Shown: positions 18,921 through 58,333 of the stretch, one piece after another | Numbering within the stretch: position 1 is the stretch's first letter | Layout of the letters: each line of letters begins with the position of its first letter | From: Nanobdellota archaeon | GTDB lineage: Archaea; Nanobdellota; Nanobdellia; Parvarchaeales; Parvarchaeaceae | Length of the DNA stretch: 64,000 nt | Assembly (NCBI GenBank): GCA_021810345.1 | Contig: JAJZIX010000002.1 | Location: 11,027 to 75,026, forward strand | Reading direction: 5' to 3' | Program-made: the position numbers and the translations under genes | The notes under the pieces: model-generated | Told to the model about the DNA's origin: nothing | The model's input: only the letters and a program-made list of their open reading frames with translations | Databases searched by the model: none

Positions 18921-19193
18921 ATGGAAGACGAAGAATTTGACAGGCTTCTAAGAGTCTGCAGGCTGAAAGTATCCGCCGAGCAAAGAAAAAAGCTCAAGTC
19001 CGATGCAGATGATATTCTTCATTATTTTGACAGGATAAGCGAGGTTCAGTGCGACGATATTCCTCCTGCATTTCATTCTGTGGATATTGATGGCAGGTAC
19101 AGAAAGGATGTGCCGTTAAAGTTCGATGACGTCGAGGGGATACTTAAAAACACAAAAACGCACAGGTTTTTTGTGGTAGGGCCGAGGATATGA
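18921..19193 (+). CDS. gatC: Asp/Glu-tRNA amidotransferase subunit C
   Basis: 90 aa. It immediately precedes gatA with ATGA overlap. GatC-like text: RLKVSAEQRKKLKSDADDILHYFDRISEV. Confidence 0.7.
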   Translation: MEDEEFDRLLRVCRLKVSAEQRKKLKSDADDILHYFDRISEVQCDDIPPAFHSVDIDGRYRKDVPLKFDDVEGILKNTKTHRFFVVGPRI

Positions 19194-20536
19194 CGTACGT
19201 CAATGAGTTCTTGAAGAAAGAGAAACCGGCCGATTATTACTCAAAGCTTCTGGAGGAGCTAGAGGAAAAAAACAACAAGTTTCATGCTTTCAATGTATTG
19301 AATAAGCGGATTTCGGATGGATTTCCAATCAGCGTAAAGGACAACATCTGCGTCAAAGGAATGGAAACGACCGCCTCATCGAAAATCTTAAAAGGATACA
19401 TCCCACCATTCAGCGCAACTGTGATAAAAAGGCTGGAGAAGGATGGTTTCAGCGTTCTCGGGAAAACAAATATGGATGAATTTGGGTTTGGTAGCTTTGG
19501 GATCAATTGCGAGGTGCCAGCAAGGAACCCGTTCGATGAGACGCGTGTGGCGGGAGGGTCAAGCAGCGGTGCTGCGGTGGCTACCTCTATAATGAAATAC
19601 CATGCTGCGGTTGCAGAGTCAACTGGCGGGTCGATAGCCGCCCCCGCTTCGTTCTGTGGGGTAGTCGGTTTCACTCCTACTTATGGGCTGATTTCAAGGT
19701 ATGGTCTGATAGATTACGCAAATTCGCTGGATAAGATAGGATTTATGGCACGGTCATCTGGGGATATACGTTTATTGATGAGTAAATCGGTGGGAGTGGA
19801 TCCAGCTGACACTACCTCCGTCGATGTTAAGCTGAGTGATGTAAAGAAAGAAAAAATTGTAGTAATAGACGAACTTTATGACAAGATAGACAAAAACATC
19901 AAGTTATCATTTGACAGCAGCCTCAGCAGGCTTTCAGCAGCGGGTTTTAAGGTGCAGCATGTCAGCATTCCGGAGATAGACTATTCGGTTCCGGTCTACT
20001 ATATAATCTCAATGGCTGAGGCATCGACCAATCTTGCTAAGTTTACTGGCTTCAAATATGGGCTGAAGGTTGATGATTTTTCGAAGGAATACAACGAATT
20101 CTTTACAGAGGCACGCGAAGCCTTCGGAGAGGAAGCCAAGCGTAAGATAATTCTTGGGACATTTATAAGGGGCGCAAGCGTTAGGAGCAAATATTATGAA
20201 AAGGCATTGAGGATAAGGCGGATCATAAGAGATAAGCTATCCAAAGTCTTGGATGACTCTTTCATTATCTCGCCTACGATGCCGGTATTGGCTCCGAAAG
20301 CAAAAGAAGCGGAAAGTTTTAGCCCTATCCAGAATTACTCGATGGACCTGCTCACAATACCGCCTAACTTGTGTGGGTTTCCGACGATTTCACTTCCATC
20401 AGATTACATCGATGGGCTTCCTGTTGGGCTGCAGCTCACCGGAGGGCAATTCGAGGATAATGGTCTAATCTCTTTTGGGGAACAGTGGGAGGACTCATTC
20501 AAGTACAAGTTTAAGTATAATATAGGTGAGCTATGA
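19190..20536 (+). CDS. gatA: Asp/Glu-tRNA amidotransferase subunit A (amidase signature family)
   Basis: 448 aa. Amidase signature GGSSSGAAVA...GGSIAAPASFCGVVGFTPTYG. Translationally coupled to gatC and gatB. Confidence 0.9.
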   Translation: MTYVNEFLKKEKPADYYSKLLEELEEKNNKFHAFNVLNKRISDGFPISVKDNICVKGMETTASSKILKGYIPPFSATVIKRLEKDGFSVLGKTNMDEFGFGSFGINCEVPARNPFDETRVAGGSSSGAAVATSIMKYHAAVAESTGGSIAAPASFCGVVGFTPTYGLISRYGLIDYANSLDKIGFMARSSGDIRLLMSKSVGVDPADTTSVDVKLSDVKKEKIVVIDELYDKIDKNIKLSFDSSLSRLSAAGFKVQHVSIPEIDYSVPVYYIISMAEASTNLAKFTGFKYGLKVDDFSKEYNEFFTEAREAFGEEAKRKIILGTFIRGASVRSKYYEKALRIRRIIRDKLSKVLDDSFIISPTMPVLAPKAKEAESFSPIQNYSMDLLTIPPNLCGFPTISLPSDYIDGLPVGLQLTGGQFEDNGLISFGEQWEDSFKYKFKYNIGEL

Positions 20537-21828
20537 AAATCGGTCTTGAGGTACATGTTGCTTTGCCCACACATTCGAAGCTGTTCTGCAGCTGTAGTAC
20601 AGCTGATGTAGATGAGCCGAACACGAATATCTGCCCGATATGCATGGGCTTTCCTGGTTCTAAGCCTTCGCTGAATGAAGAGGCCGTTAGGATAGCCAAG
20701 ACGATTGCGAATGCACTGAACTGCAAGATAAACCAGTCAATATCTTTTGTCAGGAAAGTCTACTTCTATCCAGACCTGCCAAAATCGTTTCAGATAACCC
20801 AACTTCAAGGCTCAATTGGATTAGAAGGAGAAGTAACGCTCTCCTCTTCCAAAGTACACATAAGGAGAATACAGATAGAGGAAGATCCGGCCAGGGTCAT
20901 AAGAGAAGCAAAGTACACACTGCTAGATTTCAATCGCTCGGGGATCCCTCTCGTTGAGATAGTCACCGATCCGGACATTGTCAGCGAGGATCAGCTGAGG
21001 GAGTTTCTGTTTGTTTTGAGGTCATTGCTTTACTATATTGGAGTTGACATAGATAAGGAGATAAAAGCCGATTTAAATATCTCCCTAGCAGAAAACAGGG
21101 TTGAGATAAAGAACGTTACCGGCATAAAAAATCTAGTGGATGCGGCAAGATACGAGATCAAAAGGCAGAGTGAAATAATAAAATCTGGTGGGGTGCCAGA
21201 GAAGGAGACAAGAAGCTATGATGAGAAGCCCCAGTCGACCATATCATCCAGAGAGAAGGAGAGCGATGAGGAGTATGGTTACATATACGAACCGGATCTG
21301 TCAGAATTTTCAGTTTCAGGGCTTACCGTGCCTGAACATATAGTCGATGCAAGGAAAGTCAGCAGGGAATTGGCCGAGAAGCACAATCTTGACTATAAAA
21401 CCCTTCTTGAGCTGATCGCATTCGACACAGAGGCAATGTCTTTGCTTAGGTATGGGCTTGAGAAAAGCGGTCTTCCAGCGGATGTTGTTGTAAACGCTTT
21501 GGAGGCGAAGAAAAGATTCGGGAAAGCCGTAAACGAAAAATCGCTTCCACTCCTAGCTGATTATATACAGAAGGGGATACAGATAGATCGTGATGTTATC
21601 ATGAGGATAGAGAAGGGGATGCCTCCTGCAGAAGTTGAAGTCTCAAATGAAGACACGGACAAGTATATAAAAGAAGAGCTGTCGGCAAATCCGGAGTTCA
21701 TAGAGAAATATAAGAAAAACCCAAAGGTTATTGATTTCATGGTGAACACTGTTTCCAGGAAGCATGGTATTCCACAGAAGAAAGTTGCGGACAGAATAAA
21801 GCATATATTGGCTGAATATCTTAAATAA
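20533..21828 (+). CDS. gatB: Asp/Glu-tRNA amidotransferase subunit B
   Basis: 431 aa. The N-terminus MKIGLEVHVAL...CPICMGFPGSKP is the GatB/GatE metal-binding signature. Confidence 0.9.
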   Translation: MKIGLEVHVALPTHSKLFCSCSTADVDEPNTNICPICMGFPGSKPSLNEEAVRIAKTIANALNCKINQSISFVRKVYFYPDLPKSFQITQLQGSIGLEGEVTLSSSKVHIRRIQIEEDPARVIREAKYTLLDFNRSGIPLVEIVTDPDIVSEDQLREFLFVLRSLLYYIGVDIDKEIKADLNISLAENRVEIKNVTGIKNLVDAARYEIKRQSEIIKSGGVPEKETRSYDEKPQSTISSREKESDEEYGYIYEPDLSEFSVSGLTVPEHIVDARKVSRELAEKHNLDYKTLLELIAFDTEAMSLLRYGLEKSGLPADVVVNALEAKKRFGKAVNEKSLPLLADYIQKGIQIDRDVIMRIEKGMPPAEVEVSNEDTDKYIKEELSANPEFIEKYKKNPKVIDFMVNTVSRKHGIPQKKVADRIKHILAEYLK

Positions 21829-21835
21829 CTCTAGC

Positions 21836-23626
21836 ATGGAAGTGGATTGTGGTAGGATAAGAGATCATGATATCGGCAAAGAAGTTGTTCTAAACGGCTG
21901 GTGTCGGTACATACGCGACCACGGTGGGCTACTTTTCGTAGATTTAACGGATAGATACGGCACCACGCAGCTTGTTTTCGAGGGTGCGCTGAAAAAAGAG
22001 GCGGAAGAACTGGGAAAAGAATATGTTATATCAGTGACCGGCGTAGTCGACAAGAGGGATAGTGACACAGTAGATGCGTCAAATCCGACTGGTACTGTCG
22101 AACTGCGCGTCAAATCCTTCAAAATAATCAACAAATCGAAAGTAATTCCGTTTGAGATAACAGAGGAGAAGGAAAAGTTCCTGCCATCCGATGATCTACG
22201 ACTTAAGTATAGGTATCTTGACCTGAGAAGGAAAAAGATGCTGAGAAATGTTGAATTCAGGGATAAGATCACAAAAACCATAAGGAAGTTCTTCTGGGAT
22301 GAGGGATTTCTAGAACTTGAGACTCCAATACTCGTAAAGGACACATACGATGCAAGCGGCTCAAGAACTTTCATAACTCCTTCAAGGATGCACAAAGGGA
22401 AGTTTTACGGCCTGCCGCAATCTCCTCAGGTGTACAAGCAGTTATCAATGATTGCCGGGCTTGATAAATATTTTCAGGTGGCAAAAGTCTTCAGGGATGA
22501 AGACCCAAGGGAAGACAGGCAGCCAGAATTCACGCAGATTGATCTTGAAGTGTCATTCAAAGACGAGAAGTACATACAAAACCTAATCGAATCAATGTTT
22601 AAGAGAGTATTTGACGAGGTAATGGGCGAGAAGCTTGAGGTCCCTTTCCCACACATAGATTACTTGGATGCGATGAGGATGTATGGATCAGATAAACCAG
22701 ACATGCGCTTTGACAATGTTTTATTCGACCTGACTGACGAGATGTCAAAAAGTGATTATAACATAATAAAGAAGGTAATATCCGCCGGTGGCAGAGTGAA
22801 AGCATTGAAGTTCCCTGCAGACATGGGCAAGAAATCACAGAAAATCGACAAGAAAAAGATACTTGAATTAGTGGAGATAGCTAAGAACCTTGGCCTTAAA
22901 GGCCTGACGTGGGTTTATGTCGTTGATGGAAAAATAGAGTCCGATCCGCCGTCGATTGCGGCTTCGCTTGCGGGGATAAGTGGGCAGATAATATCAAAGT
23001 TAGATGCACATGAAGGCGATTTGGTACTCATAGGGTCCGATCCATCGGAAAATGTCCTTCTGGCTGCCATGTCGAAGATAGGGAGGGTAGTGGGGCTGGT
23101 TTTGAGACAAACAAAGAAGAAGTATGCGTTTTTGTGGGTGGACAAGTTCCCTCTGTTTGAAAAGGATGAAGTCACGGGAGAGCTGCAGCCCATGCACAAC
23201 CCATTTGTTGCACCTACGGAAGAAACAGAGGGCCTCCTTGATTCAGCGCCAGAAAAAGTGCTCGGTAAGCGCTACGACCTTGTCTTGAACGGAATGGAAA
23301 TAGGAGGCGGCTCGCTCAGGATCCATAACCCTGATATGCAGAGGAAAGTACTGTCAAAAATGGGCCTGTCAGACGCCGAGATAGAGAGATCTCTCGGCTT
23401 TCTTATTGAGGCCTTGTCTTTTGGGGCACCGGTACACGGCGGGATAGCCCTCGGTTTCGACCGCGTTGTCGCTACATTGAGCGGTGAATATGATATAAGG
23501 GACTTTATACTGTTTCCAAAGAACAGGAAATTTGAGTCTCCGCTAGATGGTTCTCCTGATTATGTCAGCGACAAAAGGCTACAGGATGACTATGATCTTT
23601 CCGTCAAAAACGAGAAAAAAAGTTAG
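21836..23626 (+). CDS. aspS: Aspartyl-tRNA synthetase, bacterial type with a GAD insertion domain (probably non-discriminating)
   Basis: 596 aa. N-terminal OB anticodon-binding domain. Class II motifs FRDED...RQPEFTQIDLE and GGGSLRIHN...GFDRVV. A ~130 aa insertion (FDLTDEM...LVLRQ) corresponds to the bacterial GAD domain. Confidence 0.85.
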   Translation: MEVDCGRIRDHDIGKEVVLNGWCRYIRDHGGLLFVDLTDRYGTTQLVFEGALKKEAEELGKEYVISVTGVVDKRDSDTVDASNPTGTVELRVKSFKIINKSKVIPFEITEEKEKFLPSDDLRLKYRYLDLRRKKMLRNVEFRDKITKTIRKFFWDEGFLELETPILVKDTYDASGSRTFITPSRMHKGKFYGLPQSPQVYKQLSMIAGLDKYFQVAKVFRDEDPREDRQPEFTQIDLEVSFKDEKYIQNLIESMFKRVFDEVMGEKLEVPFPHIDYLDAMRMYGSDKPDMRFDNVLFDLTDEMSKSDYNIIKKVISAGGRVKALKFPADMGKKSQKIDKKKILELVEIAKNLGLKGLTWVYVVDGKIESDPPSIAASLAGISGQIISKLDAHEGDLVLIGSDPSENVLLAAMSKIGRVVGLVLRQTKKKYAFLWVDKFPLFEKDEVTGELQPMHNPFVAPTEETEGLLDSAPEKVLGKRYDLVLNGMEIGGGSLRIHNPDMQRKVLSKMGLSDAEIERSLGFLIEALSFGAPVHGGIALGFDRVVATLSGEYDIRDFILFPKNRKFESPLDGSPDYVSDKRLQDDYDLSVKNEKKS

Positions 23627-47242: not shown

Positions 47243-48250
47243 ATGGCTGAAAGCATTTTTCGTATAAAAAAAGCAGTTAATGGAATAAAAGGTAGACGGC
47301 TAGGCTTAAGTGGGCCGATTAAGATACAAAGTGTGAAACAAATAAAGTCAGGAGAAACGCATTACAATTATCTTCTTATAATAAATAGCAGGAACTTTCT
47401 GTTGAGACTGACCTCGGTAAGAAAAGACAATAAAGGCAAAAACAGTTGGGGAGCAGCCCGTATAAACATGGAATTTGACGGGATAAAAAGCATAGAAAAA
47501 CTTGGGATAGCTCCAAAGGTCCATTATAAGGATACTTCCTGCAGGGTTCTAAGCAAACCATTTGTCATATCCGATTATGTTCCGGGCGAACCAGTCATAA
47601 GAACGACTAAGAAAGACTTAAAATCGCTTGCCTTCCTTCTTGCAGAGCTGCATAGGATACACGATGTAAATGGATTAAGAAGTGAGCCGGTTAAAGATTA
47701 CAATAAGGGATACATTAAAAAAAGAGTTGACATGATAACTGATACTGGTTTTAGATATGTAAACAGGCATTTCAAAACAGATTTAATGGAAGCGCACAGG
47801 AAGATAGAACATATAAGGCTGAAAAAGCAAAAACTATCTTTAATACACGGCGATATAAGCAAAGACAACCTACTGCGCACGGAAAACGGCCTGAAACTTA
47901 TAGACTGGGAAAGCGTTAGGCTTTCGGAACCGCAGTTCGAGATCGCTACAGCATTGGAGAGATTGAATCTCAACGGCCAGAAGAGAAAGCTTTTCCTCTC
48001 AGAGTACTTAAAACACTCAGAAAAAGCAAGTTTAGACGAACTTGAAGACTACGAAAAAATAAGGTGTTTTGATAGATTGCTGTGGGCTATTTCTGAATTT
48101 GTAAAACTGAAAGAAGAGATAACGGAAAAGGAGAAGGCAAGACAGAAATCCCCATCAAAATACGTAGATAATGCTCATCTGGAATTCTTGAGGTGCAAAT
48201 CTTTGGGGTTGTTTCCCAAAGAATCTGTCTTGATAATACACCAAAAGTAG
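47243..48250 (+). CDS. Aminoglycoside phosphotransferase / choline-ethanolamine kinase-like (APH fold) protein
   Basis: Catalytic loop LIHGDISKDNLL (HGDxxxxN) and metal-binding IDWES. Confidence 0.65.
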   Translation: MAESIFRIKKAVNGIKGRRLGLSGPIKIQSVKQIKSGETHYNYLLIINSRNFLLRLTSVRKDNKGKNSWGAARINMEFDGIKSIEKLGIAPKVHYKDTSCRVLSKPFVISDYVPGEPVIRTTKKDLKSLAFLLAELHRIHDVNGLRSEPVKDYNKGYIKKRVDMITDTGFRYVNRHFKTDLMEAHRKIEHIRLKKQKLSLIHGDISKDNLLRTENGLKLIDWESVRLSEPQFEIATALERLNLNGQKRKLFLSEYLKHSEKASLDELEDYEKIRCFDRLLWAISEFVKLKEEITEKEKARQKSPSKYVDNAHLEFLRCKSLGLFPKESVLIIHQK

Positions 48251-48388
48251 ATCTTTAATCTACTTTTATCTAAAGGAGTATTACACATCCCATTAAGTCG
48301 TAGACTTTAGACTTATCTGCAAGAGATCCGTTTGTCGCATCAGAATATTTGTTGCTGATGCTTATAAGTAGAAAAGATATAAATATGT

Positions 48389-49168
48389 ATGGTGTTTACA
48401 CTGTCGTCTGGATTTAATTCCTTAATAGCTTTAAAATATACATTCCCGATTTTAGTAGCTATTCTAATTCTTCTCTTTTTTGGATTCTCATATAATTTAT
48501 ATAAATTATATAGATCTAAAAAGATTGGGAAAAACTTAGTAAAAAACAAAATAGAATATAAAGAAAATGTTAAAACAGAGATTAAAGATAAAAACTTAAT
48601 AAAAAATGAAGGAGGGATAAATAAAGATTCTGATATGAAATATAAATATGGATATACCGCAAATGTGCCGGTAACAAAACCAACGTCCAAGCTTTTGGTA
48701 TTAGTTTCATTAACGATAATACTGGTTAGTTTACTAATGCCAGCAATATCAATACTTGGATTCCAAATAGACTTATACCAGATATACCAAATTATCTTTG
48801 AAGGAATAATAAATAACTCGTTGTCTTTACAAAGCCTAATTGGGTCTCAATCTAGTGGAGCGACCTCAGTTCCAATCTTTCCTTTGATGCTTCTAGGAAG
48901 CAGCTTGATCTTATATATAACATCTATAATAGTTATCTCACTTGGTATAAAATTCAGAAAGTTAACACTGCTGGCAGGGATAATAAGCATATTTTATAGT
49001 ATATTTTTCATTGTAGGTTTAAACCTTATATCAACAATATCTAATATTCCGTTCTCTGTTGTTGGATTTGGGATATACCTTGGTATTGTATCGGGTGTAC
49101 TTATAATAATAAGTTATTACATCGAAAAAGGGAATATAACTAATTTTTATAAAAGTAGTCAAGTGTAA
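48389..49168 (+). CDS. Hypothetical polytopic membrane protein with a Lys-rich loop
   Basis: 259 aa with 5-6 hydrophobic helices, in an AT-rich region. Confidence 0.45.
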   Translation: MVFTLSSGFNSLIALKYTFPILVAILILLFFGFSYNLYKLYRSKKIGKNLVKNKIEYKENVKTEIKDKNLIKNEGGINKDSDMKYKYGYTANVPVTKPTSKLLVLVSLTIILVSLLMPAISILGFQIDLYQIYQIIFEGIINNSLSLQSLIGSQSSGATSVPIFPLMLLGSSLILYITSIIVISLGIKFRKLTLLAGIISIFYSIFFIVGLNLISTISNIPFSVVGFGIYLGIVSGVLIIISYYIEKGNITNFYKSSQV

Positions 49169-49172
49169 TGAA

Positions 49173-49394
49173 ATGAAAGATAAAAGAAAACCCTTTGATT
49201 ATTGCAGAGGTATTGCAAATTTTTTGTATGCCAATTTTCTAGAAAAAATTAAAAAATGCGGCCTAGTTTCATTAGATTTATGGTATATTCAAAAATGTCT
49301 TCGATGTCTTATTCTAGAATTTATTAAAAACTTAAAAGATCTTGAAAATGAATTTTTGGCGGAACATGTAAGTGATAATCAGATCGCAGAGTAA
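49173..49394 (+). CDS. Hypothetical small protein (73 aa)
   Basis: ORF only. Confidence 0.25.
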   Translation: MKDKRKPFDYCRGIANFLYANFLEKIKKCGLVSLDLWYIQKCLRCLILEFIKNLKDLENEFLAEHVSDNQIAE

Positions 49395-49586
49395 ATATCT
49401 AATAAATTTATTGAGGTTTATTTATATGATATTATAATATAAAATATAGTATTAATATATATATTTTTATATATTTATTACAAATATCTAATTCTTTATT
49501 AGCATATTAATTTTATTATATATAAAATTCTATAATAATCGTATATTTAAATCAAGATAGCATCTTAAGTATAATAGCTTAATTTT

Positions 49587-50087
49587 ATGGTCACTAAAGC
49601 TCTCAAAAGGTACGAATTGGAGAAAGGCGCAAAGATACTTATTGCCATCGGATTGCTGCTTATCCTAATCTCCTGGATACTTGCAATCGATTATATTTCT
49701 GTAAACCAGATAGCAAAGGACCGGCTTGCACTGCTTCCGATACCTTTGATATTCACTGCCGTAGCGGCCATTCTTCTTCTAGTCATAAAATATAGGTATA
49801 CGCTGTTTGAGAAATACCCTTACTTAATGAATCTGCCATCTATATTTTACCGTATTGGCAGAGGAAAAGACACAAAGAAACAAAGCATGGCATTCAATAT
49901 GATCTTTACAGTCCATTCGTTGGTATTGACATTTTTGGGCCTGTTAAGTATCCTTTTAACCCTGTCAATAGGCTCCAATGCTAAGACAAGCTCCCCCTTT
50001 TTCTATTCATATTTTGTAGTTATTGCTGTCCTTATAATTTCGGTTTTCCTTATATATCGTAGAATTTACATCAAGCTTAGAAGCTAA
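49587..50087 (+). CDS. Hypothetical membrane protein (4 TM)
   Basis: Hydrophobic helices. Preceded by a ~190-nt extremely AT-rich gap. Confidence 0.45.
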   Translation: MVTKALKRYELEKGAKILIAIGLLLILISWILAIDYISVNQIAKDRLALLPIPLIFTAVAAILLLVIKYRYTLFEKYPYLMNLPSIFYRIGRGKDTKKQSMAFNMIFTVHSLVLTFLGLLSILLTLSIGSNAKTSSPFFYSYFVVIAVLIISVFLIYRRIYIKLRS

Positions 50088-50183
50088 TACAGTTAGAGGA
50101 TCAATCTAAAAGAAAGGTATTTATACCCAACCATATCATTACTTTAATATAATAAATTTGGAGGATAAATTACGGCAAAACGA

Positions 50184-50290
50184 TCGACCTTGGAGGAGTT
50201 TTTAACGTATGAAGTCAAAAAATTTGAATGATTGCCTGGAAGCTGAGCCAAAGAAGTCGCGTTTCGTAAAGACTAAGCACCTCTTAGGCA
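50184..50290 (+). repeat. Copy A of a ~90-100-nt direct repeat (RBS plus first 26 codons); copy B lies at 50840-50936
   Basis: 69 consecutive identical nt (aaaaatttgaatgattgcc...cacctctta). The flanking codons differ only synonymously, and both copies have ttggag(g/a)ag upstream. Confidence 0.9.
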
Positions 50291-50829
50291 TATTGGGCCT
50301 GGGTTCAGGAACTGGGTTAGTAGAGATTGACACTCTGGACAGATTAAATGATGTCGGAGCTGTAACAACCCCTACCTCTGTATCCTATACTCCTGGAGGG
50401 CATTACCTCTTAAGAGATCTCGCAGATAATCCAATATATCACGATTTATCGCATTTTTTCGTTAATATAGGTATTTCCGGCGGTCCGAACAATACTCTGG
50501 GCATACTTGCAGCTGCAGCGGCGCTTACTATTGGAGGTTTATCAGCAAGATCATACATAAAAGATACTAAAAACTCTTCTAATACTAAACCAAGTCTCAA
50601 AAAGGCAGCGATATCATCGGCATTTCTAGCAGGCGGCATTTACATAGGATCACAGTCATTTCTTCCGGTGGTTAATGATGTGTTATACAAAGCCCCTATA
50701 TCAACATTGGGGTATGCAGCTGCGGGGGCTGTAGGGGTATTGAGTAGCATATATCTTGGAATCGACTACCTAAAGGCCAGGCACGCGTATAAAAAGCAGG
50801 ATGGAAATGCGTACCTAAAAGATACTTGA
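50209..50829 (+). CDS. Hypothetical protein with three Gly/Ala-rich (glycine-zipper-like) hydrophobic segments; its N-terminal 30 aa are shared with the next gene
   Basis: N-terminus MKSKNLNDCLEAEPKKSRFVKTKHLL(G)ILG. Segments such as TLGILAAAAALTIGGL, LAGGIYIGSQSFL and LGYAAAGAVGVLSSIYLG. GGAGGAG upstream. Confidence 0.5.
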   Translation: MKSKNLNDCLEAEPKKSRFVKTKHLLGILGLGSGTGLVEIDTLDRLNDVGAVTTPTSVSYTPGGHYLLRDLADNPIYHDLSHFFVNIGISGGPNNTLGILAAAAALTIGGLSARSYIKDTKNSSNTKPSLKKAAISSAFLAGGIYIGSQSFLPVVNDVLYKAPISTLGYAAAGAVGVLSSIYLGIDYLKARHAYKKQDGNAYLKDT

Positions 50830-50856
50830 TAGGGGGCCACAAAAATTGGAGAAGTA

Positions 50857-51461
50857 TGAAATCGAAAAATTTGAATGATTGCCTGGAAGCTGAGCCAAAG
50901 AAGTCGCGTTTCGTAAAGACTAAGCACCTCTTAAGTATATTAGGCGGGGATAAAATTATAACACCCTTTAAAAATAGGGTGGATAGCCGCAAGCTTAGAC
51001 ATAAAAAGGGCCAGCCAGTCGGATATAAAGATGTAAAAGATTACCTAGATGGGTTTTTGCAATATTTCGATAAGATTTATTCGGGTGTTACAGGGATAGT
51101 ACTATATGGTTCAATGGCTAGGGGTACGGGCAGGATAGACAGTGATATAGATTTATTGTTTTTCACCGATGATGAGGACAAAACCTATCAGAAAATCGAG
51201 CAGTGTAAAGGCGATTTCTCGTCTGGAGAATACGCAGATTTACTCATTTGTAGAGGCCTGCCTCGAGTTCGGCTGTCTACAGCCATGATGCTAAACAGTG
51301 AATTTGAGCGGATCGTAGAGATATGTCGTAGGAGTGGAGGCGGACTTGCGTACAACTATGCAGATGACGGCATTGTACTCTATGATGCGGGTGGCCGGAC
51401 AAAGAGATACTTAGAAGAACTGCGGACTGAACCTCATATAAAAGACATGATTATACCTTAA
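50857..51461 (+). CDS. Minimal nucleotidyltransferase (Pol beta superfamily, MNT-like) carrying the same N-terminal 30-aa leader as the preceding gene
   Basis: Nucleotidyltransferase motif GIVLYGSMARGTGRIDSDIDLLFF. The start is set at the ATG (MKSKNL) preceded by GGAG rather than the TTG at 50826 used by the ORF track. Confidence 0.6.
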
Positions 51462-51610
51462 GCAGACAAATTCTCCTCCCAGGAGAAAGTAAACCTTTCA
51501 AAGTTCCTAATGGACACACGACAGAAGAATAAATCAGATGTATAATTCTATAAGTAACATGTATAAAAAGTAATACACAAAGCACAATAAAACCCTTAAA
51601 CATATAACTA

Positions 51611-51626
51611 AAATTATATATACTTA
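51611..51626 (+). promoter_or_regulatory. Putative archaeal TATA box (aaattatatatactt) ~28 nt upstream of the mntA-like ATG, implying a leaderless transcript
   Basis: An AT-rich TATA-like octamer at the canonical distance from the start codon. Inferred, not verified. Confidence 0.3.
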
Positions 51627-51645
51627 TAGTTACCTATAATTAACT

Positions 51646-52059
51646 ATGAGTACGACGATACAAATAGATGATGATTTAAGAAAAAGGCTGGAAGAGCTTA
51701 AGAAGCATAAAAGAGAATCTTTAAATGAAGTTATCCATAAAATAATCGCTAAATTACCAAAGAAAATAGCTCCTAACGATGTCGAAAACCTGAAGAAGAT
51801 AGCTGTGCCTGTGCTCAAAGGTTATGGAGTAGAGAAAGCGGCAGTTTTCGGGTCATTCGCAAGAGGCGATGCGACAGAAAATAGCGATATAGACCTATTA
51901 GTGAAATACAAAGAAGGCACTTCCCTGTTTGATGTAGTAAGACTCCAAAATCGTTTAGAAGCGGAACTAGGAAGAAAAGTAGATCTGGTTTCGTATGACT
52001 TTATAGACAAATATATAAGAGAACGTATACTTAAGGAGAGCATTTCCTTATATGAATGA
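51646..52059 (+). CDS. mntA: MntA-like minimal nucleotidyltransferase antitoxin with an N-terminal ribbon-helix-helix extension
   Basis: N-terminus TIQIDDDLRKRLEELKK is RHH-like. Nucleotidyltransferase motif AAVFGSFARGDATENSDIDLLV. Overlaps the downstream HEPN gene by 8 nt. Confidence 0.75.
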   Translation: MSTTIQIDDDLRKRLEELKKHKRESLNEVIHKIIAKLPKKIAPNDVENLKKIAVPVLKGYGVEKAAVFGSFARGDATENSDIDLLVKYKEGTSLFDVVRLQNRLEAELGRKVDLVSYDFIDKYIRERILKESISLYE

Positions 52060-52396
52060 AAAAGATGATTTAGTCTATTTAGGCCATATAATAGATGCGA
52101 TAAATGGGATAAAAGAATACACAAATGGAATGAAAAAGGAGGGCTTCTTGAAGGATAGAAAGACACAGGATGCAGTTATCAGAGAGATAACGATAATAGG
52201 GGAAGCAACAGCGTTTATAAGCGATCTATTCAAAGAAAAACATAGCAGCATACCTTGGACGGAAATGAAGGGAACAAGAAATAGAATTGTACATGGCTAC
52301 TTTTCAATAGATCTTAACATAGTATGGCAGCTAATAATCAGGGATCTACCAGAGCTTGAAATTAAGCTCAAAGAATTAGCAAATGAAGGCAATTAA
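52052..52396 (+). CDS. hepT: HepT-like HEPN (DUF86) RNase toxin
   Basis: Has the Rx4HxY motif RNRIVHGY and the conserved SIPW region. Size and position after an MNT fit a type VII MntA/HepT module. Confidence 0.75.
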   Translation: MNEKDDLVYLGHIIDAINGIKEYTNGMKKEGFLKDRKTQDAVIREITIIGEATAFISDLFKEKHSSIPWTEMKGTRNRIVHGYFSIDLNIVWQLIIRDLPELEIKLKELANEGN

Positions 52397-52492
52397 TCTT
52401 TAGCCTTTTGTAGAGATTTACTTGATTTAGAAGAGAAAACTATAAATAGTATATAAGTTTATATAATAATATTAATAAGTATTACAACAATT

Positions 52493-52765
52493 ATGACAAA
52501 GAATGTAAATGAGGTATTGCATTATCCTAGACTTGATACAGTATTGATGATTGAGGAGGCGATAAAAAACGCTAAAGAGTACCCCTCAAAAAGACAACTT
52601 TGGCTTTCATTGAAGAAAAAGGTCATGTATCAAACTTTTAACATAGTTATAGATTATTTGGTAGAGTCAAACAAAGTGGTCATCGATAAGGAAGGCAAGG
52701 TTATTTGGATATGGGATCCGGAAGGCGTAAAAAAGTATATGAAAGAGGGGGTAATAATACGATGA
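52493..52765 (+). CDS. Hypothetical protein (90 aa)
   Basis: ORF with a TATA-like tttatataat ~28 nt upstream; no recognisable motif. Confidence 0.4.
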   Translation: MTKNVNEVLHYPRLDTVLMIEEAIKNAKEYPSKRQLWLSLKKKVMYQTFNIVIDYLVESNKVVIDKEGKVIWIWDPEGVKKYMKEGVIIR

Positions 52766-52852
52766 AGCAAATAAATGTGGTTCTAGTTGATAAAAAACTT
52801 GAAAATCAAAACTTTACAGATAGGAGTAGCATAATAAAGTTAGAAGTTTAAT

Positions 52853-53254
52853 ATGACAAAATACAAGACACTAAAAAGCGCTGTTTTAGGCAAAAATGGG
52901 GGTGTTTGCTGGGTTTTGCTCACGATAGGTATTGTTCTATCACTTGTGGGGTTCACCGTAATGCCGTGGATAAATATAGTATATGGGGGATTAGTAAATC
53001 ATCTTGCCGGGGTTATAATAGGTTTTTTGCTAATGGCAGTAGGTATATCTATTCTCCTTTTGCTATATCCAAAACTTAATAGTATAAAGCTTAAGCAATC
53101 AAAAGAAAGAAAAAGATTCGTTTATGGACTGGCTATATTTTTGATAATAGCTATCTTTAGTCAGATACCACTGCTTATTTTAGTTTCCAGTACTTTACAA
53201 CTGTTCTCCGCAGAACTGATATTAGGAATATTACTAGGGATGTTTTTGCTATAG
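52853..53254 (+). CDS. Hypothetical membrane protein (4 TM, 133 aa)
   Basis: Hydrophobic helices. Confidence 0.45.
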   Translation: MTKYKTLKSAVLGKNGGVCWVLLTIGIVLSLVGFTVMPWINIVYGGLVNHLAGVIIGFLLMAVGISILLLLYPKLNSIKLKQSKERKRFVYGLAIFLIIAIFSQIPLLILVSSTLQLFSAELILGILLGMFLL

Positions 53255-53430
53255 TGTTTAGGGAGCGAAGTAAACACATTTATCCTTTTGGGAGAAAAGG
53301 GAAGCACTTGATTCTGTTATTTTACGATTTACCCATTAAAGGTATCCTGCGACGAAACATCCCCATCAAACGCCACTTAAGTATAATTCTATGGCTTTTC
53401 GTATGTTTTTTATGTGTTTTTTAGTGGTTT

Positions 53431-53466
53431 TGAGGTCTTGATTTCTACCTTTACAGGGTATCCAGC
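53431..53466. repeat. Conserved ~25-35-nt element (tatgttttt..gag..cttgatttctacctttacagg) downstream of paralog A; a second copy at 54111-54140 abuts the stop of paralog B
   Basis: Direct comparison of the two loci. 21 of 21 nt are identical in the core ttgatttctacctttacagg. Confidence 0.8.
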
Positions 53467-53529
53467 TTACACTTAAAGACTAATTGAAACCTGCAAAAAT
53501 TGGTAAATTCAGCTACTTTCCTACAGAGC

Positions 53530-54042
53530 TCACTGTCTGGAAGCTTCTTCGTCGTCAACTATTTTTTGCACAGTAGGTTTCTGGCGCGCTACTTGTTTCC
53601 GAGCTTCGGGGGATACGGGGCTTTTTATGTATCCATCTGCCTCGTTTTCCAGTAGTTTCTCCCAATTACCTGGCTTATAATTGTAAATATGAATGCCACC
53701 AGATTCATAAACATGCAAGCTCAATACATTGTGCCGCTTAGTCCCAAAAAAGCCATTTGGGATTATATCTACACTTAAAAATGAGAGGTAATCACTCGGT
53801 TTTTTGTATTCGATTCCAAATAAGGCCCCTCCCACATTAATATCTGCTTTATAACTACCCTGCTCATCAATGCATCCCTTATTTCTTTCACTTTGATAAG
53901 TTAGCAGCATTTTCGAAATAGAATACAACTTATTGACTCTTTTTAGTCGTTTTTCCCCTTCGGCCCTCAATAACTCATCTAAAGAAGTATCCCCCCCATC
54001 ATTTTTCTGTATATAGCCATCAGTCTCCATTATCCCCACCAT
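53530..54042 (-). CDS. Hypothetical protein, paralog A of an unrecognised family (170 aa)
   Basis: Shares ERNKGCIDEQGSYKADIN and NYKPGNWEKLLEN with the 54138-54983 protein. Conserved 5' flank ggtataaatt-ATG and 3' motif. Confidence 0.5.
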   Translation of the reverse strand: MVGIMETDGYIQKNDGGDTSLDELLRAEGEKRLKRVNKLYSISKMLLTYQSERNKGCIDEQGSYKADINVGGALFGIEYKKPSDYLSFLSVDIIPNGFFGTKRHNVLSLHVYESGGIHIYNYKPGNWEKLLENEADGYIKSPVSPEARKQVARQKPTVQKIVDDEEASRQ

Positions 54043-54137
54043 AATTTATACCTTATACTTGCTACTATTTAATATCTTAGAAAACAACTGATATAAATAT
54101 CTTATGTTTTTGAGCTTTGATTTCTACCTTTACAGGA

Positions 54138-54983
54138 TCATATGAGAACACTCTGGTTCTCCAGTAGTTTCTCCCAATTACCGGGCTCATAAACATCTAA
54201 CTTTATACGTTTACTCCTCTCATCTTTACTTGCGCTTAACACCATATCTGGGTTAAAATATCCACGGACACCCCCTCGGCTCAAATCTACGGTTAAATGT
54301 GAATAAGTAATATGATCATGGTACATGACTATGAATAACCCTTCTTTAGTTCTAACACCCAGTAGGTAATCTGTGTAATGCTGATCTGGCCCTTCTTTTT
54401 TCAGGCCCTTACTGATTACTAGGGGCACCAAGTTGTCGTATAAATTTCTAGCTTTTTTTAGCCTATTGTACATCTCATTCTTTAATACTTCATCGAGATA
54501 TTTTATCGATGTCTTTATTGTATTACCTTTCGGTGTTAGCTTTCTATACTCCTTTTCTAAAGCATCCTCACATTTGTCTGGCGTGTAAGAATAGAGATAG
54601 AAATCCTCGTTTTTAAAGTACGACAAAGCCGCTACTCCTTTCAGTACATGCCTAAAGATACTCTTTTGATACACATACGTTCCTATAAAAGATTTATTGG
54701 GCTTTTGAGGATCATTAGAATACGTTATAACAAGAGGTTTCTTTTCCGAAGAGATATCTGCCATGTAAGAACCCTCCTTATTAATGTATCCCTTATTTTT
54801 CTCCGCCCGATCAATTAGTAATTCTAATGAAGCTCCAATTAATTTTTCAGCTCGTTGTATTCTTAGTTTCTCTTCTTCGGTTTGTACTGCGGGAACTGTG
54901 AAAACTTCTATTCCCAACAGTTCTGCTAAACTTTTTCCATTTATCTTACCTAAAAGGTTAACTTCATTTCTGCGTTGCGCCAT
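54138..54983 (-). CDS. Hypothetical protein, paralog B of the same unrecognised family (281 aa, with a ~110 aa central insertion)
   Basis: Shares EKNKGYINKEGSYMADIS and VYEPGNWEKLLENQ with paralog A. Same conserved flanks. Confidence 0.5.
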   Translation of the reverse strand: MAQRRNEVNLLGKINGKSLAELLGIEVFTVPAVQTEEEKLRIQRAEKLIGASLELLIDRAEKNKGYINKEGSYMADISSEKKPLVITYSNDPQKPNKSFIGTYVYQKSIFRHVLKGVAALSYFKNEDFYLYSYTPDKCEDALEKEYRKLTPKGNTIKTSIKYLDEVLKNEMYNRLKKARNLYDNLVPLVISKGLKKEGPDQHYTDYLLGVRTKEGLFIVMYHDHITYSHLTVDLSRGGVRGYFNPDMVLSASKDERSKRIKLDVYEPGNWEKLLENQSVLI

Positions 54984-55309
54984 AATTTATACCTACATTT
55001 ATGAATTACTACAGAATGCAACCAATATAAATACTTTACTATTATGTAAGTAGTTAATAAATTATATTATCAGATTTTCCACATTTTGGCTAGATTTTCC
55101 GCATAAAATGCTTTACTCGTCTGTATCTTCAAGTGAGGAAAATCGAAATTATTGTAAATAAACAATCTATGTTCCTCTGTGTCTAATCTTGGTACGGTGC
55201 TCCTCCCAGAAGCCATTTATTCCGTACTTTATGGCGATCGCCCCTAGAACAGCGGTAGCTAAAGAAACACCTTGTATAACTCTTGTCCATGCGTGGCAAA
55301 TCACCATTC

Positions 55310-55570
55310 TTATATCTTTCGAGATCCATTCGATAGATGTAACCTTTCCCCCCTTCTTTTTGATATATTGATAGTATAAGCCAAATCATACTTTGGGGTG
55401 AAGGTACAAGCCAAATCATCCTTTTGGGTGAAGGATTTTCTATATACTAAGGTGGACATTTCTAAACAGTATAACGCCCCATCGTAGTCCTTTTGCCTTA
55501 TACCAGCACTAGCCAGATCAAACCATCTGGTAGCGCTATCCATTGCTTTTTTAGACACTATTCTTTCCAT
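55310..55570 (-). CDS. Hypothetical small protein downstream of an MNT gene, possibly a divergent mini-HEPN partner; contains an in-frame 30-nt tandem duplication
   Basis: 86 aa, overlapping the end of the 55558-56145 nucleotidyltransferase by 13 nt. The N-terminal helix (ATRWFDLASAGIRQKDYDGALYCLEMS) and the C-terminal RRGERLH (Rx4-6H-like) are HEPN-like but weak. Confidence 0.3.
   Translation of the reverse strand: MERIVSKKAMDSATRWFDLASAGIRQKDYDGALYCLEMSTLVYRKSFTQKDDLACTFTPKYDLAYTINISKRRGERLHLSNGSRKI
55381..55440. repeat. Tandem duplication of a 30-nt unit (ccaaatcatactttggggtgaaggtacaag / ccaaatcatccttttgggtgaaggattttc)
   Basis: Read directly. In frame within the 55310-55570 ORF (DLACTFTPKYDLAYT). 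Confidence 0.85.
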
Positions 55571-56145
55571 TCCAGTACCAAATTATTACCCATTTTTACC
55601 CAGGCATATCTTATTTTCTTAAGATTGCTAATAAATTCACTTAATATTCCATCTTTTTCATATAATATTGTCCCCTCCTCTAATAATGATATATAAAATG
55701 GTCTAAACTCTGCTAGATCCTCTTTCTTTAAAATAACCTCACTTATGTACAGATGTAATCCTTTTGCAACTAATTTCTGTCTCATGGGATCAATTTCCTT
55801 AATTATTTGCTCTAACTTATCGAAATAGGTTAATACGTTTCCATCAACAACGACTAATATGTCTATGTCACTATAACTATTAAAAGTTCCCCGAGCAATT
55901 GATCCAAAAAGCATAATTCCAAGAACATTTTTATCCTGTTTAACCTGGTCTACAAATGTTAAGATATAATTTTGTATATCCATGTCTAATTTCAAAAAAT
56001 TTACTTTTTTCTTTATAAATTCATTAATAACATCAGAAAATGTAACTTTTTTATTCGACTTTGTCTGTATCATGGCCTTTGCATCAACAAGTGCATTATA
56101 CGCATTTTTATCAAGTAAAGTCTGCTTATATTTTTTGTTTCTCAT
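55558..56145 (-). CDS. Minimal nucleotidyltransferase (MNT family) with N-terminal RHH-like and C-terminal extensions
   Basis: Nucleotidyltransferase motif IMLFGSIARGTFNSYSDIDILVVVD. The N-terminus KKVTFSDVINEFIKKK is RHH-like. Confidence 0.7.
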   Translation of the reverse strand: MRNKKYKQTLLDKNAYNALVDAKAMIQTKSNKKVTFSDVINEFIKKKVNFLKLDMDIQNYILTFVDQVKQDKNVLGIMLFGSIARGTFNSYSDIDILVVVDGNVLTYFDKLEQIIKEIDPMRQKLVAKGLHLYISEVILKKEDLAEFRPFYISLLEEGTILYEKDGILSEFISNLKKIRYAWVKMGNNLVLEWKE

Positions 56146-56316
56146 ATGTGTTATGTATACATCATATATATAAAAGTTAATTCAAAAATAAGATATTATT
56201 GCTTTTCAGATGAAATATTATTAGATACTTTAATCAAATACCACTTAATTATAAGATTATTACGAAATTTTGATTATCAAAATAAACTAAAAGCCCAACG
56301 ACTAGAGAGATAAAGC

Positions 56317-56880
56317 TTATATTGTCTTTACTTCTTTCTTCCTTTTATCTCTTAATTCAAATATAACCGCTTGTATCTTCTTAGCTTCATCAACATTTAA
56401 TGCTCTAAGATAATTTACACTTGATATACGCGCATTATTTAACACTATCATCCCACCAATAGGAGATATATATAGAGAGGTTAATCCTAATATCCTATCT
56501 GCAATAGATCTGTTCATCACAACATCTTGGACCATCTCAAGAGGTAATGAATCTACCGAGTAACCTATTATACCTCTTCCGCTTATTAGCCTATTATTTG
56601 TTATCCAGTATCTATATTTATTGTAAGATACTATAGAAACGAAAATCCCAATTAGTATAACGGCAAACATAATACCAAAGAAGGATATAAGAATATATGG
56701 AGTTGGAAGAGGTGGAGTACCGGTTGCTAAGAGTAAGGAGCTAAAAACCGCAATAATAATACCAGCTATAACCACTCCAATGAATCTCTGCAGTATGAAA
56801 CCCCTTTTGTTTGGTCTAACCTCGTATTCTATAGTTTCCCCTTGCTGCAAAGAAAAAGGTAATTCTGCTTCTGTCGCCAT
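56317..56880 (-). CDS. Bacterial-PH (bPH_2/DUF304, YdbS/YdbT-like) domain membrane protein
   Basis: Two TM helices follow an N-terminal cytoplasmic stretch, then a PH-like C-terminal domain; the layout is typical of DUF304. Confidence 0.5.
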   Translation of the reverse strand: MATEAELPFSLQQGETIEYEVRPNKRGFILQRFIGVVIAGIIIAVFSSLLLATGTPPLPTPYILISFFGIMFAVILIGIFVSIVSYNKYRYWITNNRLISGRGIIGYSVDSLPLEMVQDVVMNRSIADRILGLTSLYISPIGGMIVLNNARISSVNYLRALNVDEAKKIQAVIFELRDKRKKEVKTI

Positions 56881-57283
56881 TATAATAAGCTGTTTATAAG
56901 ATATTTAAGCTTTTCTGCATAGTATAAATATGCTAAATAATGGGTTAATCGTTATAATAAATAAATTAATATTAAGATAATATTATTGTTATCTATATAT
57001 TGAATATTATATCACTTTATTTATAATAAGCCTGACGCTTTTGCTGCTTTTTATAAGGCAGATGATGATAATTATAGTATTGATTATAATATTATAAATA
57101 ATAAAATAGTACTATCGAATTTAATATTATTTTATCATACTATATATTTGAATAATCCTTGTGCGTATGCAGTTATCCCAACCAATATAGTGTATGTGTA
57201 ATTCGTAGAAAAATAAATTATTACAATAATGGGATTTATTTTTATTGCCCCGCCAGCAGCAAATGTATACCGCGTCCTTTGTT

Positions 57284-57892
57284 TTAGCTCTTTTTATTTG
57301 ACTTGCCGTTGTCATTAGACTTTTTATCTCTAAGCTCTTCTCTCAAAAAATTGTATATTACTGGTGCAGCGCTGAGCAATGATAGTGGTATTACTAAAGA
57401 GGCATATGTAAGCTGACTGAAATAATTGTACATCCCGCTGTCTAACATATAATTATGTGCGGTGACGACTGTTTCAGCTAATCCTACCCCAAGATAAAGA
57501 CTACTTGTTACTTTCTTTTGGCTTAAACGTGAATACTTATGAGCGAGTGCTCCGAGTAAGTAGCCTCCATACAGGAAAAGGAACATGCTTGAGACCGCTT
57601 CTGGTATAAGTCCCAGTTTCTGTATAAAAATTGATGGGGCGTAGTTACCCTCATGCAATCCCTTATACTCTATGCCGAAGTATGTTGAAATCCTATCGGC
57701 GAGCATCGTAATAGCAGAAAATGAAAAGGCGTACTTTGATTGTTTTATTGCATTTTTTATTGATATTAGGTGCTTGTACAAAGAATTCTTAACCCTGTGC
57801 CCAAAATTATATCTCTTGTTTACAGGATTAGATGCATTGTATTCATACCCGTTTTGGCTGCTCTCATCGAGCAGGTTGTCGAGAGAATGCAT
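57284..57892 (-). CDS. Hypothetical membrane protein (202 aa)
   Basis: Hydrophobic helices and a Lys/Asn-rich C-terminus. Adjacent to the 57896 gene. Confidence 0.4.
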   Translation of the reverse strand: MHSLDNLLDESSQNGYEYNASNPVNKRYNFGHRVKNSLYKHLISIKNAIKQSKYAFSFSAITMLADRISTYFGIEYKGLHEGNYAPSIFIQKLGLIPEAVSSMFLFLYGGYLLGALAHKYSRLSQKKVTSSLYLGVGLAETVVTAHNYMLDSGMYNYFSQLTYASLVIPLSLLSAAPVIYNFLREELRDKKSNDNGKSNKKS

Positions 57893-57895
57893 TGC

Positions 57896-58333
57896 TCAAG
57901 GCGAATATCCAGAGCCAGACAGTCCATTTATGTATTGATCTAATACTCTGTCTATAACTCCCTTATTTATAAGATATTTTGCGGACTTAACCAATGCGTT
58001 GGAAGATCTGTTAATGCGGCTGTTATATATGAAACCGACCATCCCGGCCACCATAATTCCTGTGGTTAACGCCGATCCGTCTACTAATGTCATCAGTGCC
58101 CCGCCAGCAGCCATTGTAGCGGTTAGTGCCGTAATACTGTTGTATAATGCATTTGGGTTGTAGCCGGCCTTTACTGCAGTATCTCTCACATAAGAATCGA
58201 ATGCATATTTCGTCATTACATTAGGGAATCCCAAATTGGACAGGTAGTTTCTTTCCTTTAATATTACTTTATTTATCTTCTCTGCGGGTACACCGTTCGC
58301 TTTTAGAAGATCTGCAAGTTTTTTTGATACCAT
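57896..58333 (-). CDS. Hypothetical protein (145 aa) with a Gly/Ala-rich hydrophobic segment
   Basis: ORF carrying the segment TATMAAGGALMTLVDGSALTTGIMVAGMVGFI. Confidence 0.4.
   Translation of the reverse strand: MVSKKLADLLKANGVPAEKINKVILKERNYLSNLGFPNVMTKYAFDSYVRDTAVKAGYNPNALYNSITALTATMAAGGALMTLVDGSALTTGIMVAGMVGFIYNSRINRSSNALVKSAKYLINKGVIDRVLDQYINGLSGSGYSP

Follow-up and report, generated by a model that had tools for sequence, protein, structure and literature searches.

Introduction

Chimeric genes born by duplication and fusion are known from eukaryotes, where jingwei is the type, and from bacteria, where a promoter or a start codon may be captured after tandem duplication. The cdiA-CT/cdiI orphans of contact-dependent inhibition (CDI) systems and the Rhs orphans carry a constant fragment from the 3′ end of the main gene ahead of a C-terminal toxin, each toxin having its own immunity gene, and the vsp, vlp and vsa genes of Mycoplasma form large families with a lipoprotein signal peptide and a phase-variation machinery. 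In the present work we analyze a stretch of 64,000 nucleotides (the window) of contig JAJZIX010000002.1, from a Nanobdellota assembly (GCA_021810345.1), in which two adjacent genes with unrelated bodies, an uncharacterized gene (gene 1) and a gene for a minimal nucleotidyltransferase (NTase; gene 2), begin with a near-identical 5′ module, henceforth the leader; in our view this shared module is probably what remains of a local segmental duplication from which a chimeric gene arose.

A further point of comparison is the Hailong anti-phage system (Tan et al. 2025, as summarized in PMC13276650), which consists of the NTase HalB and the membrane ion channel HalA. A mark of that system is the synthesis of oligodeoxyadenylate, which gates the channel. 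An earlier reading of the same letters (the original prediction) had likened the leader to the constant module of a cassette or polymorphic effector, or to a shared targeting or regulatory peptide, and had named gene conversion and an RNA-level constraint as alternatives. The loci used for comparison (L001-L024) are neighboring haplotypes or relatives taken from public assemblies; coordinates without a locus name are those of the window, on the forward (+) strand unless marked (-).

Results

Two adjacent genes share a direct repeat

A repeat search returned a single strong direct-repeat family, whose two copies (50207-50298 and 50854-50945, 92 nt, 647 nt spacing) are identical at 87 of 92 positions (95%) and enclose an exact 69-nt core (50218-50286 = 50865-50933) that was matched in 0 of 100 dinucleotide shuffles; the near-identical 5′ module described by the original prediction is thus real. 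Copy 1 (50207..50298) comprises the start and codons 1-30 of gene 1, and copy 2 heads gene 2, whose ATG lies at 50856, one base before the 50857 first given for it, and 26 nt past the gene-1 stop. Both open reading frames (ORFs) start MKSKNLNDCLEAEPKKSRFVKTKHLL(G/S)ILG. The five bases that differ between the copies include the three synonymous edge differences already noted (aag/aaa, tca/tcg and ttg/tta), and the remaining two make up ggc/agt, that is, G27S; codons 2-3 of copy 1 (aag tca) are derived, every other allele reading aaa tcg.

When compared with the ancestral arrangement, the homology of copy 2 runs upstream to at least 50835, so that its full extent is about 111 nt (50835..50945): some 21 nt from the 3′ end of a 138-aa ORF (GGCCACAAAAATTGGAGAAGT), followed by the ATG and leader codons 1-30. 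This bears on the ribosome-binding site (RBS) that the two genes were said to share. The strings ttGGAGgAG (50190-50198) and ttGGAGaAG (50846-50854) both exist; however, they are non-homologous and out of register (19 vs 10 nt before the ATG), the former being leftover T-L-E-E codons from the 5′ end of the internally deleted 138-aa ORF and the latter the 3′ end of that ORF (K-L-K/E-K-Y), and the shared RBS is coincidental.

The leader is native to the gene-1 family

Gene 1 (50209..50829, +) encodes a Gly/Ala-rich, weakly hydrophobic protein of 206 aa, from an uncharacterized family without any Pfam, NCBIfam or PADLOC match, that has four hydrophobic segments (Kyte-Doolittle maximum 1.6) and an all-helical AlphaFold2 (AF2) model of low confidence (predicted local distance difference test, pLDDT, 48), too poor for a fold search. 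In the alignment of its 18 homologues (48-94% identity), L6 and the residues K23...L25...L29-G30-L31...G34 (TKHLLGVLGLGSG) are at least 90% conserved, and the leader motif TKHLLGxLGLGSG is kept in the family down to 48% identity; since the leader is conserved across the gene-1 family, it is native to that family. The leader occurs on gene 1 only in haplotypes L002, L011, L013-16, L022 and L023 and in all distant relatives, and no NTase adjoins gene 1 in the distant relatives L007-L010, L018-L020 and L024, which come from metagenome-assembled genomes (MAGs) labelled Nanoarchaeota. Over leader codons 1-30, gene-1 alleles differ by synonymous to non-synonymous changes of 6:1, 4:1 and 10:6, with ratios of non-synonymous to synonymous polymorphism (pN/pS) of 0.04-0.14, so that the claim of a selected peptide holds for the gene-1 leader in the form of purifying selection.

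Native gene 1, in alleles that lack the downstream duplication, ends AYLK-TAG and window gene 1 ends AYLKDT before its stop; because native gene 1 ends AYLK-TAG, the left edge of the duplication lies between 50821 and 50835. A small conversion, or that left edge itself, may be the source of the additional 'DT' codons. A 15-nt repeat, TAC(A/C)TAAAAGATACT (50554-50568 and 50812-50826), is also seen here, in which an internal segment of gene 1 (SYIKDT) resembles the C-terminal AYLKDT and stop.

Gene 2 joins the leader to an NTase body

Gene 2 is a chimeric ORF (50856..51461, +) of 201 aa, made up of the 30-aa leader and a minimal NTase, here NTase B′, from its residue 2. The Pol-beta-type assignment was borne out by the Pfam domain NTP_transf_2/Polbeta (PF01909, PF18765), above cut-off at aa 66-135, with an intact catalytic GS..DxD motif (GSMARGTGRIDSDID); in the AF2 model, residues 1-46 have pLDDT <50 and confidence sets in from residue 55. 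Five orthologues of this NTase (P0020-P0023 among them; 165-175 aa, 47-66% identity) start M..TLDKI and have no leader, and the window NTase consists of the leader plus the NTase from 'DKII', the leaderless NTase B of L011 aligning from 50949 by tblastn. At the fusion junction (50940..50951, +), TTA GGC (leader Leu29-Gly30) replaces the NTase codons ATG GGN (Met1-Gly2) and is followed by GGG GAT AAA ATT, the native ..DKI, as seen on comparison with the NTase starts of L011 (ATGGGCGCACTTGATAAAATC) and L003 (ATGGGAAACACACTTGATAAAATC); TGGGC is a possible microhomology at this point, gene 1 having ATATTGGGCCTGGG. The NTase's own start codon and own upstream region are gone from the window, and therefore the leader ATG is the only plausible start and the NTase product bears a 30-aa gene-1 N-terminus.

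The same junction is present in L017, which was assembled independently and matches the window at 100% across the 201 nt that surround it. In the comparison of the window with L017, 285 nt of gene 1 upstream are without a difference and the NTase has 7 substitutions, all of them non-synonymous transitions, and 0 synonymous ones (51204-51407, codons 117-184). A scan for sigma-70 promoters and terminators returned only a hairpin (TTCTCCTCCCAGGAGAA) just past the gene-2 stop, the sigma-70 model being uninformative for a probable archaeon.

Copy 2 carries the end of an upstream ORF

An ORF of 136-139 aa in L001, L011 and L002 overlaps the start of gene 1 and ends ...GHKKLKKYEIEKFE and stop. What is left of its 5′ part in the window (50172..50205, +) has lost the interior of the ORF and reads ACG in place of ATG, followed by AKRSTLEEFL codons: L001 1-731 matches window 49474-50205 at 95%, and the match then resumes at L001 1090. 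Copy 2, for its part, matches L001 1070-1181, that is, the native junction of the 138-aa ORF with gene 1, at 92.9% over 112 nt. As copy 2 carries the 3′ end of the 138-aa ORF, a segmental duplication of DNA, and not a cassette at the protein level, accounts for it.

The upstream junction (the gene-1 stop, TAGGGG, then GCCACAAAAA...) is common to the window, L017, L001 and L021, its sequence in the latter three being TGATAGGGGGCCACAAAAA, and this common junction points to one founding event. Losses of the 136-139-aa ORF number at least three, each with a junction of its own: the internal deletion in the window (50172-50208), a near-complete deletion in L021 (600-645), and, in the P0005 haplotype (L013 6001-6675), a fusion in frame of its N-terminus (MAKQLELEETLNEE) to gene 1.

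The leader heads three bodies among haplotypes

In L011 the order of genes is a 166-aa gene, a 139-aa ORF, gene 1, leaderless NTase B, leaderless NTase A and a pair of minimal nucleotidyltransferase (MNT) and HepT genes. In L001 and L021 the leader is joined, near NTase residue 17, to NTase A (45% identity with the NTase of the window). Hence, at one locus in the natural population, the leader heads three bodies: gene 1, NTase A and NTase B′. Cluster look-ups yielded 5 variants of leader-NTase B′ and 15 of leader-NTase A, all in frame, and 15 public contigs (NCBI, JGI and ENA; up to 120 kb long) encode a protein identical to that of window gene 2. Three of the variants (P0040, P0041 and P0043) look like recombinants of two haplotypes.

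Residues 1-21 are near-invariant in the chimeras (1/21 and 0/21 positions variable), whereas the junction is hypervariable (5/11 positions, with in-frame indels) and 29/176 positions of the NTase A body vary; the 8-10 residues around the NTase A fusion junction read KMKQLLGV, MKQQLLGA or MKQLLNA. Between the NTase A haplotypes L001 and L021 the leader has a pN/pS of 0.18; the pN/pS of the NTase body is 0.3. All NTase A leaders have T22M (ACG -> ATG) where gene 1 has Thr22 (L001 1740-1830; L021 1291-1380; P0044-P0059).

At the DNA level, NTase B′ of the window shares only 78% identity with NTase B of L011 and L003, against 94-95% for the flanks, and therefore an import by recombination is needed. 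A one-step deletion from an L011-like or an L001-like haplotype was considered and, given the same figures, does not account for the window. On the right-hand side, the window retains the last 18 codons and the stop (..INQMYNSISNMYKK and stop) of a gene for a 127-aa membrane protein (51517..51573, +; residues 110-127 align by tblastn at 51517-51570). That gene follows the leader-NTase A gene in L001, and the rest of it is absent from the window; the 88 nt at 51517-51604 are 100% identical to L001 2773-2860 and mark the right-hand end of the swapped segment. A fragment of NTase A is present in L003.

The identity of the two copies is probably recent

The leader copies are 97% identical in the window and only 78% identical in L001 and in L021. 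Both window copies share ACT and CTCTTA states that gene 1 of L001 and L011 lacks, one gene-1 allele, P0036, is set apart from that of the window by S27 alone, the state found in copy 2, and the high similarity of the window to L001 is lost within copy 2. The best reading of these sequence patterns is that the 69-nt identity would reflect recent recombination or gene conversion with gene-1 alleles, as the original prediction had allowed, and not a constraint at the RNA level. As to the locus as a whole, the simplest reading would be a mosaic history made up of a single duplication, subsequent exchange with gene-1 alleles by recombination or conversion, and a replaced NTase body.

Searches for further carriers of the leader

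The original prediction had proposed to look for the leader at the head of further C-terminal domains, and we found none beyond gene 1, NTase A and NTase B′. No other C-terminal domain with the leader appeared in 90%-cluster searches with gene 1 and gene 2 as queries, and an exhaustive phmmer search of the 40-aa leader against 1.84 billion representatives gave no credible carrier, leaderless 50%-cluster representatives being able to hide chimeras. The sole phmmer match, a 1056-aa protein with 8 stretches at 38% identity, was judged spurious or repetitive. A scan of JGI metagenome DNA gave 0 matches by pattern and, by profile, one truncated gene-1 locus without an NTase; a scan of genome contigs gave only three distant gene-1 relatives (likewise MAGs labelled Nanoarchaeota) and no chimera. 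At the loci examined, the neighbors of the NTases are small membrane proteins, MNT/HepT, restriction-modification (RM) or AIPR genes; no consistent partner or immunity-like gene follows the NTases, and no secretion genes were seen among the scanned window ORFs.

Discussion

Origin of the chimeric gene and its consequences

We hold with high confidence that the leader on gene 2 derives from duplication and fusion, an origin read from features of the sequences. One parent family possesses the segment natively, and the orthologues of the other are without it (P0020-P0023, and both NTases of L011, are leaderless); the copy has brought along ~21 nt of donor flank, from the 138-aa ORF, for which there is no function in its new location; and the junction is real, as it recurs in L017, L001 and L021 and on 15 contigs. 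The ancestor would have had the 138-aa ORF overlapping the start of gene 1 by 23 nt and leaderless NTases A and B downstream, an arrangement that L011 still shows. The ~21 nt from the end of that ORF, the gene-1 ATG and some 30 codons would then have been copied to just past the gene-1 stop, and the copied segment would have been joined in frame to NTase B′ in the window and, with a leader of comparable length, to NTase A, near its residue 17, in L001 and L021.

As a consequence of this arrangement, the NTase may be co-transcribed and co-translated with gene 1; a G may have arisen in the copy (TTGAAGAAG -> TTGGAGAAG) that would give a possible Shine-Dalgarno-like GGAG; and the added peptide would be tolerated, perhaps even useful, as it may form a short N-terminal helix x-L-N/D-D/K-C/I-L similar to the native NTase TLDKIL. 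A borrowed start codon and operon coupling, together with a tolerated N-terminal tag, are thus the most likely working consequence that the sequence suggests, and a true targeting or docking role for the leader has a low probability.

Several points weigh against this account of a duplicated, selected and translated leader. No intermediate, such as a full tandem duplicate of gene 1, was found among the haplotypes, and we infer the exact path, for which duplication followed by deletion, template switching and recombination among haplotypes are the candidates. NTase A and NTase B′ do not have the same 3′ junction, which calls for a minimum of two joining events or for a swap at a later time. The leader substitutions could have been imported from gene-1 alleles, in which case the low pN/pS of the NTase copy would not be independent proof of selection. 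T22M creates an in-frame internal ATG roughly where the native NTase begins, and translation of NTase A could in fact start there. The 7:0 pattern between the window and L017, a small sample, fits relaxed or diversifying selection and not a tightly constrained enzyme, and on gene 2 the leader is predicted by AF2 to be disordered.

Alternative explanations

The organization put forward in the original prediction, whereby the leader would be the constant targeting or interaction module of a cassette, its payloads sharing a partner or a location and the repeat serving as a homology arm, strikes us as unlikely. Three bodies with the leader at one locus do agree with such a module, and so do the near-invariance of residues 1-21 in 20 chimera variants whose junctions and bodies vary, the window/L001 breakpoint inside the leader with NTase A and NTase B′ swapped between leader and 127-aa-gene remnant, and the enrichment of an LDKIL-like N-terminal motif in island proteins (see below). 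However, besides the native owner there are only two payload types, which are paralogous; the copy bears a fragment of an unrelated ORF, as an accident at the DNA level would; leaderless NTases occur in sister haplotypes and in all distant relatives; and the predicted disorder of the leader speaks against a docking module as well. The proposal did not hold up, in that the leader is native to the gene-1 family and reached the NTases by a DNA duplication carrying a piece of an unrelated ORF. Slightly less likely still, the fusion would be a side effect, without function, of the rearrangements in a hypervariable island, and the chimeric NTase would be decaying. The many independent deletions at the locus (138-aa ORF, 127-aa-gene remnant, NTase A fragment in L003) would be expected of such a process, and of the 7 non-synonymous changes between the window and L017 some fall at conserved sites (R132C and D179G in the window; L164P in L017). 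Decay is nonetheless hard to reconcile with 20 distinct full-length, in-frame variants over many samples and no frameshifts, with an intact catalytic GS...DxD, with a body pN/pS of 0.3 and with a conserved N-terminal part of the leader.

A function of the RNA, either as an antisense or riboregulatory target or as a structured 5′ element, might have kept the copies identical, and a perfect 69-nt core whose edges changed only synonymously is what one would look for; we regard it as very improbable. In gene 1 the number of synonymous polymorphisms per site (pS) is 0.21-0.72 in the leader vs 0.06-0.53 elsewhere in the gene, in L001 and L021 the two copies share only 78% identity, minimum free energy z-scores of +0.8 to +1.65 on both strands indicate that the leader folds worse than shuffled sequences, and it has no Rfam match; an RNA constraint is rejected because, from one allele to the next, synonymous sites in the leader change freely, and because its RNA lacks structure. 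Least credible of all, to the point of being almost negligible, is an assembly artefact in the form of a collapsed or chimeric repeat. The window probably comes from a metagenome-derived assembly, and short repeats can mis-join contigs; the original prediction had named an assembly duplication as a refutation. Against this, the junction is repeated in the independent L017, the upstream junction is found in L001 and L021 too, and the 15 contigs with the exact protein come from three sources.

Island context and the N-terminal motif

The chimeric gene lies in a hypervariable defense and toxin-antitoxin (TA) island, the low-GC region at ~48000-58000 (0.30-0.39 vs 0.42-0.45). The conserved left flank is a gene for a 166-aa protein with four transmembrane segments (49587..50087, +), near-identical in L001, L021 and L011. 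About 200 nt downstream of gene 2 lies a ribbon-helix-helix (RHH)-MNT/HepT pair (51646-52059 and 52052-52396, +; Pfam Polbeta, NTP_transf_2, DUF7557 and HepT-like), whose NCBIfam matches to MntA and HepT are below cut-off and which is separate from the chimera. When compared to L001, the window has extra DNA at ~51605-53280, with this pair and ORFs of 90 and 133 aa, and at ~54143-56929, including a minimal NTase at 55615-55983(-); in related haplotypes the corresponding place is taken by RM, AIPR, acetyltransferase or other MNT/HepT genes. Farthest removed among the NTase orthologues is P0021 (L004 5342-6498, also in L005 and L006), which directly follows a DUF981 membrane protein of 205 aa and precedes an RHH/ParE pair, L004 being a second case of this NTase family adjoining a membrane protein of ~205 aa. 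Genes elsewhere in the window (21836-23626, 19190-21828, 6437-8140 and 11616-12776) include those for a bacterial-type aspartyl-tRNA synthetase (AspRS), which has a GAD domain and scores above the aspS_bact cut-off, for GatA/GatB, for a PolX-PHP polymerase and for a UDP-sulfoquinovose synthase. Nevertheless, as gene 1 has its only genome-resolved relatives in MAGs labelled Nanoarchaeota, an archaeal origin of the window is plausible.

The motif L-[DEN]-[DEKQN]-[IFLVC]-[LVIA] was found within the first 25 residues of 13/120 ORF families from the window and the fetched loci, as opposed to 1/120 at internal offsets and 1.15 +/- 1.04 after shuffling of the N-termini, figures to be read with the fact that the pattern was defined post hoc, after some families had been seen, about 6 families being unseen confirmations. 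Its forms include NLNDCL (the leader), TLDKIL (native NTases), TLEEFL, GLDKIL, SLDELL and SLDNLL, and its carriers are mostly small uncharacterized proteins of the low-GC variable island. They lie at 50209-50238, 50856-50885, 53530-54042(-) and 57284-57892(-) in the window; at L001 698-1114 and 3780-4292(-) and L002 6017-6565; and at L011 3695-4216 and 4308-4910, L013 4697-5194 and L007 9815-10279(-).

It is conceivable, if improbable, that the first ~21 residues of the leader (M-K-S-K-N-L-N-D-C-L-E...) contain a linear signal of the form x-L-[DEN]-[DEKN]-[IFLC]-[LV], an island-wide tag for targeting, docking or turnover, and that the graft was selected to redirect the NTase or to co-localize it with the membrane protein. 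The carriers of such a signal would be the 138-aa protein, gene 1, the native NTases and proteins of 170, 182 and 202 aa. Were this true, the tag might serve, for example, a membrane complex or delivery to the host cell in an episymbiotic DPANN archaeon, and an LDKIL-like motif that is a real signal would offer a new handle on the sorting or regulation of island proteins in such cells.

Returning to the duplicated leader, the locus offers a cleanly resolved case in which micro-duplication gave birth to a gene, in an archaeal lineage that is uncultivated and probably DPANN, with parent, recipient, flank, junction and haplotypes all readable in public assemblies, and it shows how fast small genes turn over at the edge of a TA/defense island. 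It also calls for caution in genome scans, where near-identical 5′ modules on adjacent unrelated genes can be a DNA accident followed by homogenization and not a cassette or a riboregulator.

Comparison with known systems

Gene 2 shares with the NTase component of the type VII HepT/MntA systems the minimal Pol-beta NTase fold and the GS..DxD motif, its best Foldseek matches being the MNT antitoxins 7ae9, 6m6w and 8xeo; it differs in having no HEPN partner, in ~50 extra N-terminal and ~60 extra C-terminal residues, and in TM-scores of 0.3-0.5. An assignment as MntA was rejected, given an NCBIfam score of 30.4 bits vs a cut-off of 60 and a nearest HepT (52052-52396) that overlaps its own MNT (51646-52059). 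The likeness to Hailong lies in a small NTase gene next to a membrane-protein gene in a defense island, HalB structures (9dbh, 9dbj) being among the top structural matches of gene 2; in contrast, Hailong proteins have no common N-terminus, and the adjacency of gene 1 and the NTase is not conserved outside this clade. Gene 2 does not qualify as HalB (26.3 bits vs a cut-off of 190, with only 29 residues of the catalytic core matched). Gene 1 has no NCBIfam match at E<=0.01, no comparison aimed at HalA having been made. A pairing of NTase and membrane effector similar to Hailong or to the cyclic-oligonucleotide-based antiphage signaling system (CBASS) was dropped on the scores and the non-conserved adjacency.

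With the orphans of polymorphic toxins the locus has in common a constant fragment before an alternative payload, downstream of the main gene, that might act as a homology arm, whereas here the fragment is the 5′ start of a gene, the payload is an entire enzyme whose orthologues occur without the leader, and no immunity or secretion genes were seen. The Mycoplasma vsp, vlp and vsa genes are similar in that adjacent genes have a conserved 5′ end (~30 residues) and divergent bodies, with recombination keeping the likeness; they differ from the present case, in which there are two copies per genome, no signal-peptide features and unrelated body folds. Both resemblances are superficial. The closest parallel in kind is with duplication-fusion chimeras, whereby the parent keeps the segment and a 5′ copy, together with a functionless flank, is joined in frame to a neighbor and gives it new expression signals and a new N-terminus. 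What sets the present locus apart from them is that the duplication is tiny (~110-125 nt), that it is found in an uncultivated, probably DPANN lineage, that it involves two paralogous NTases in coexisting haplotypes and that it bears signs of later homogenization with its parent; it is, in short, the birth of a new gene by an ordinary duplication-fusion route, and not a new cassette system.

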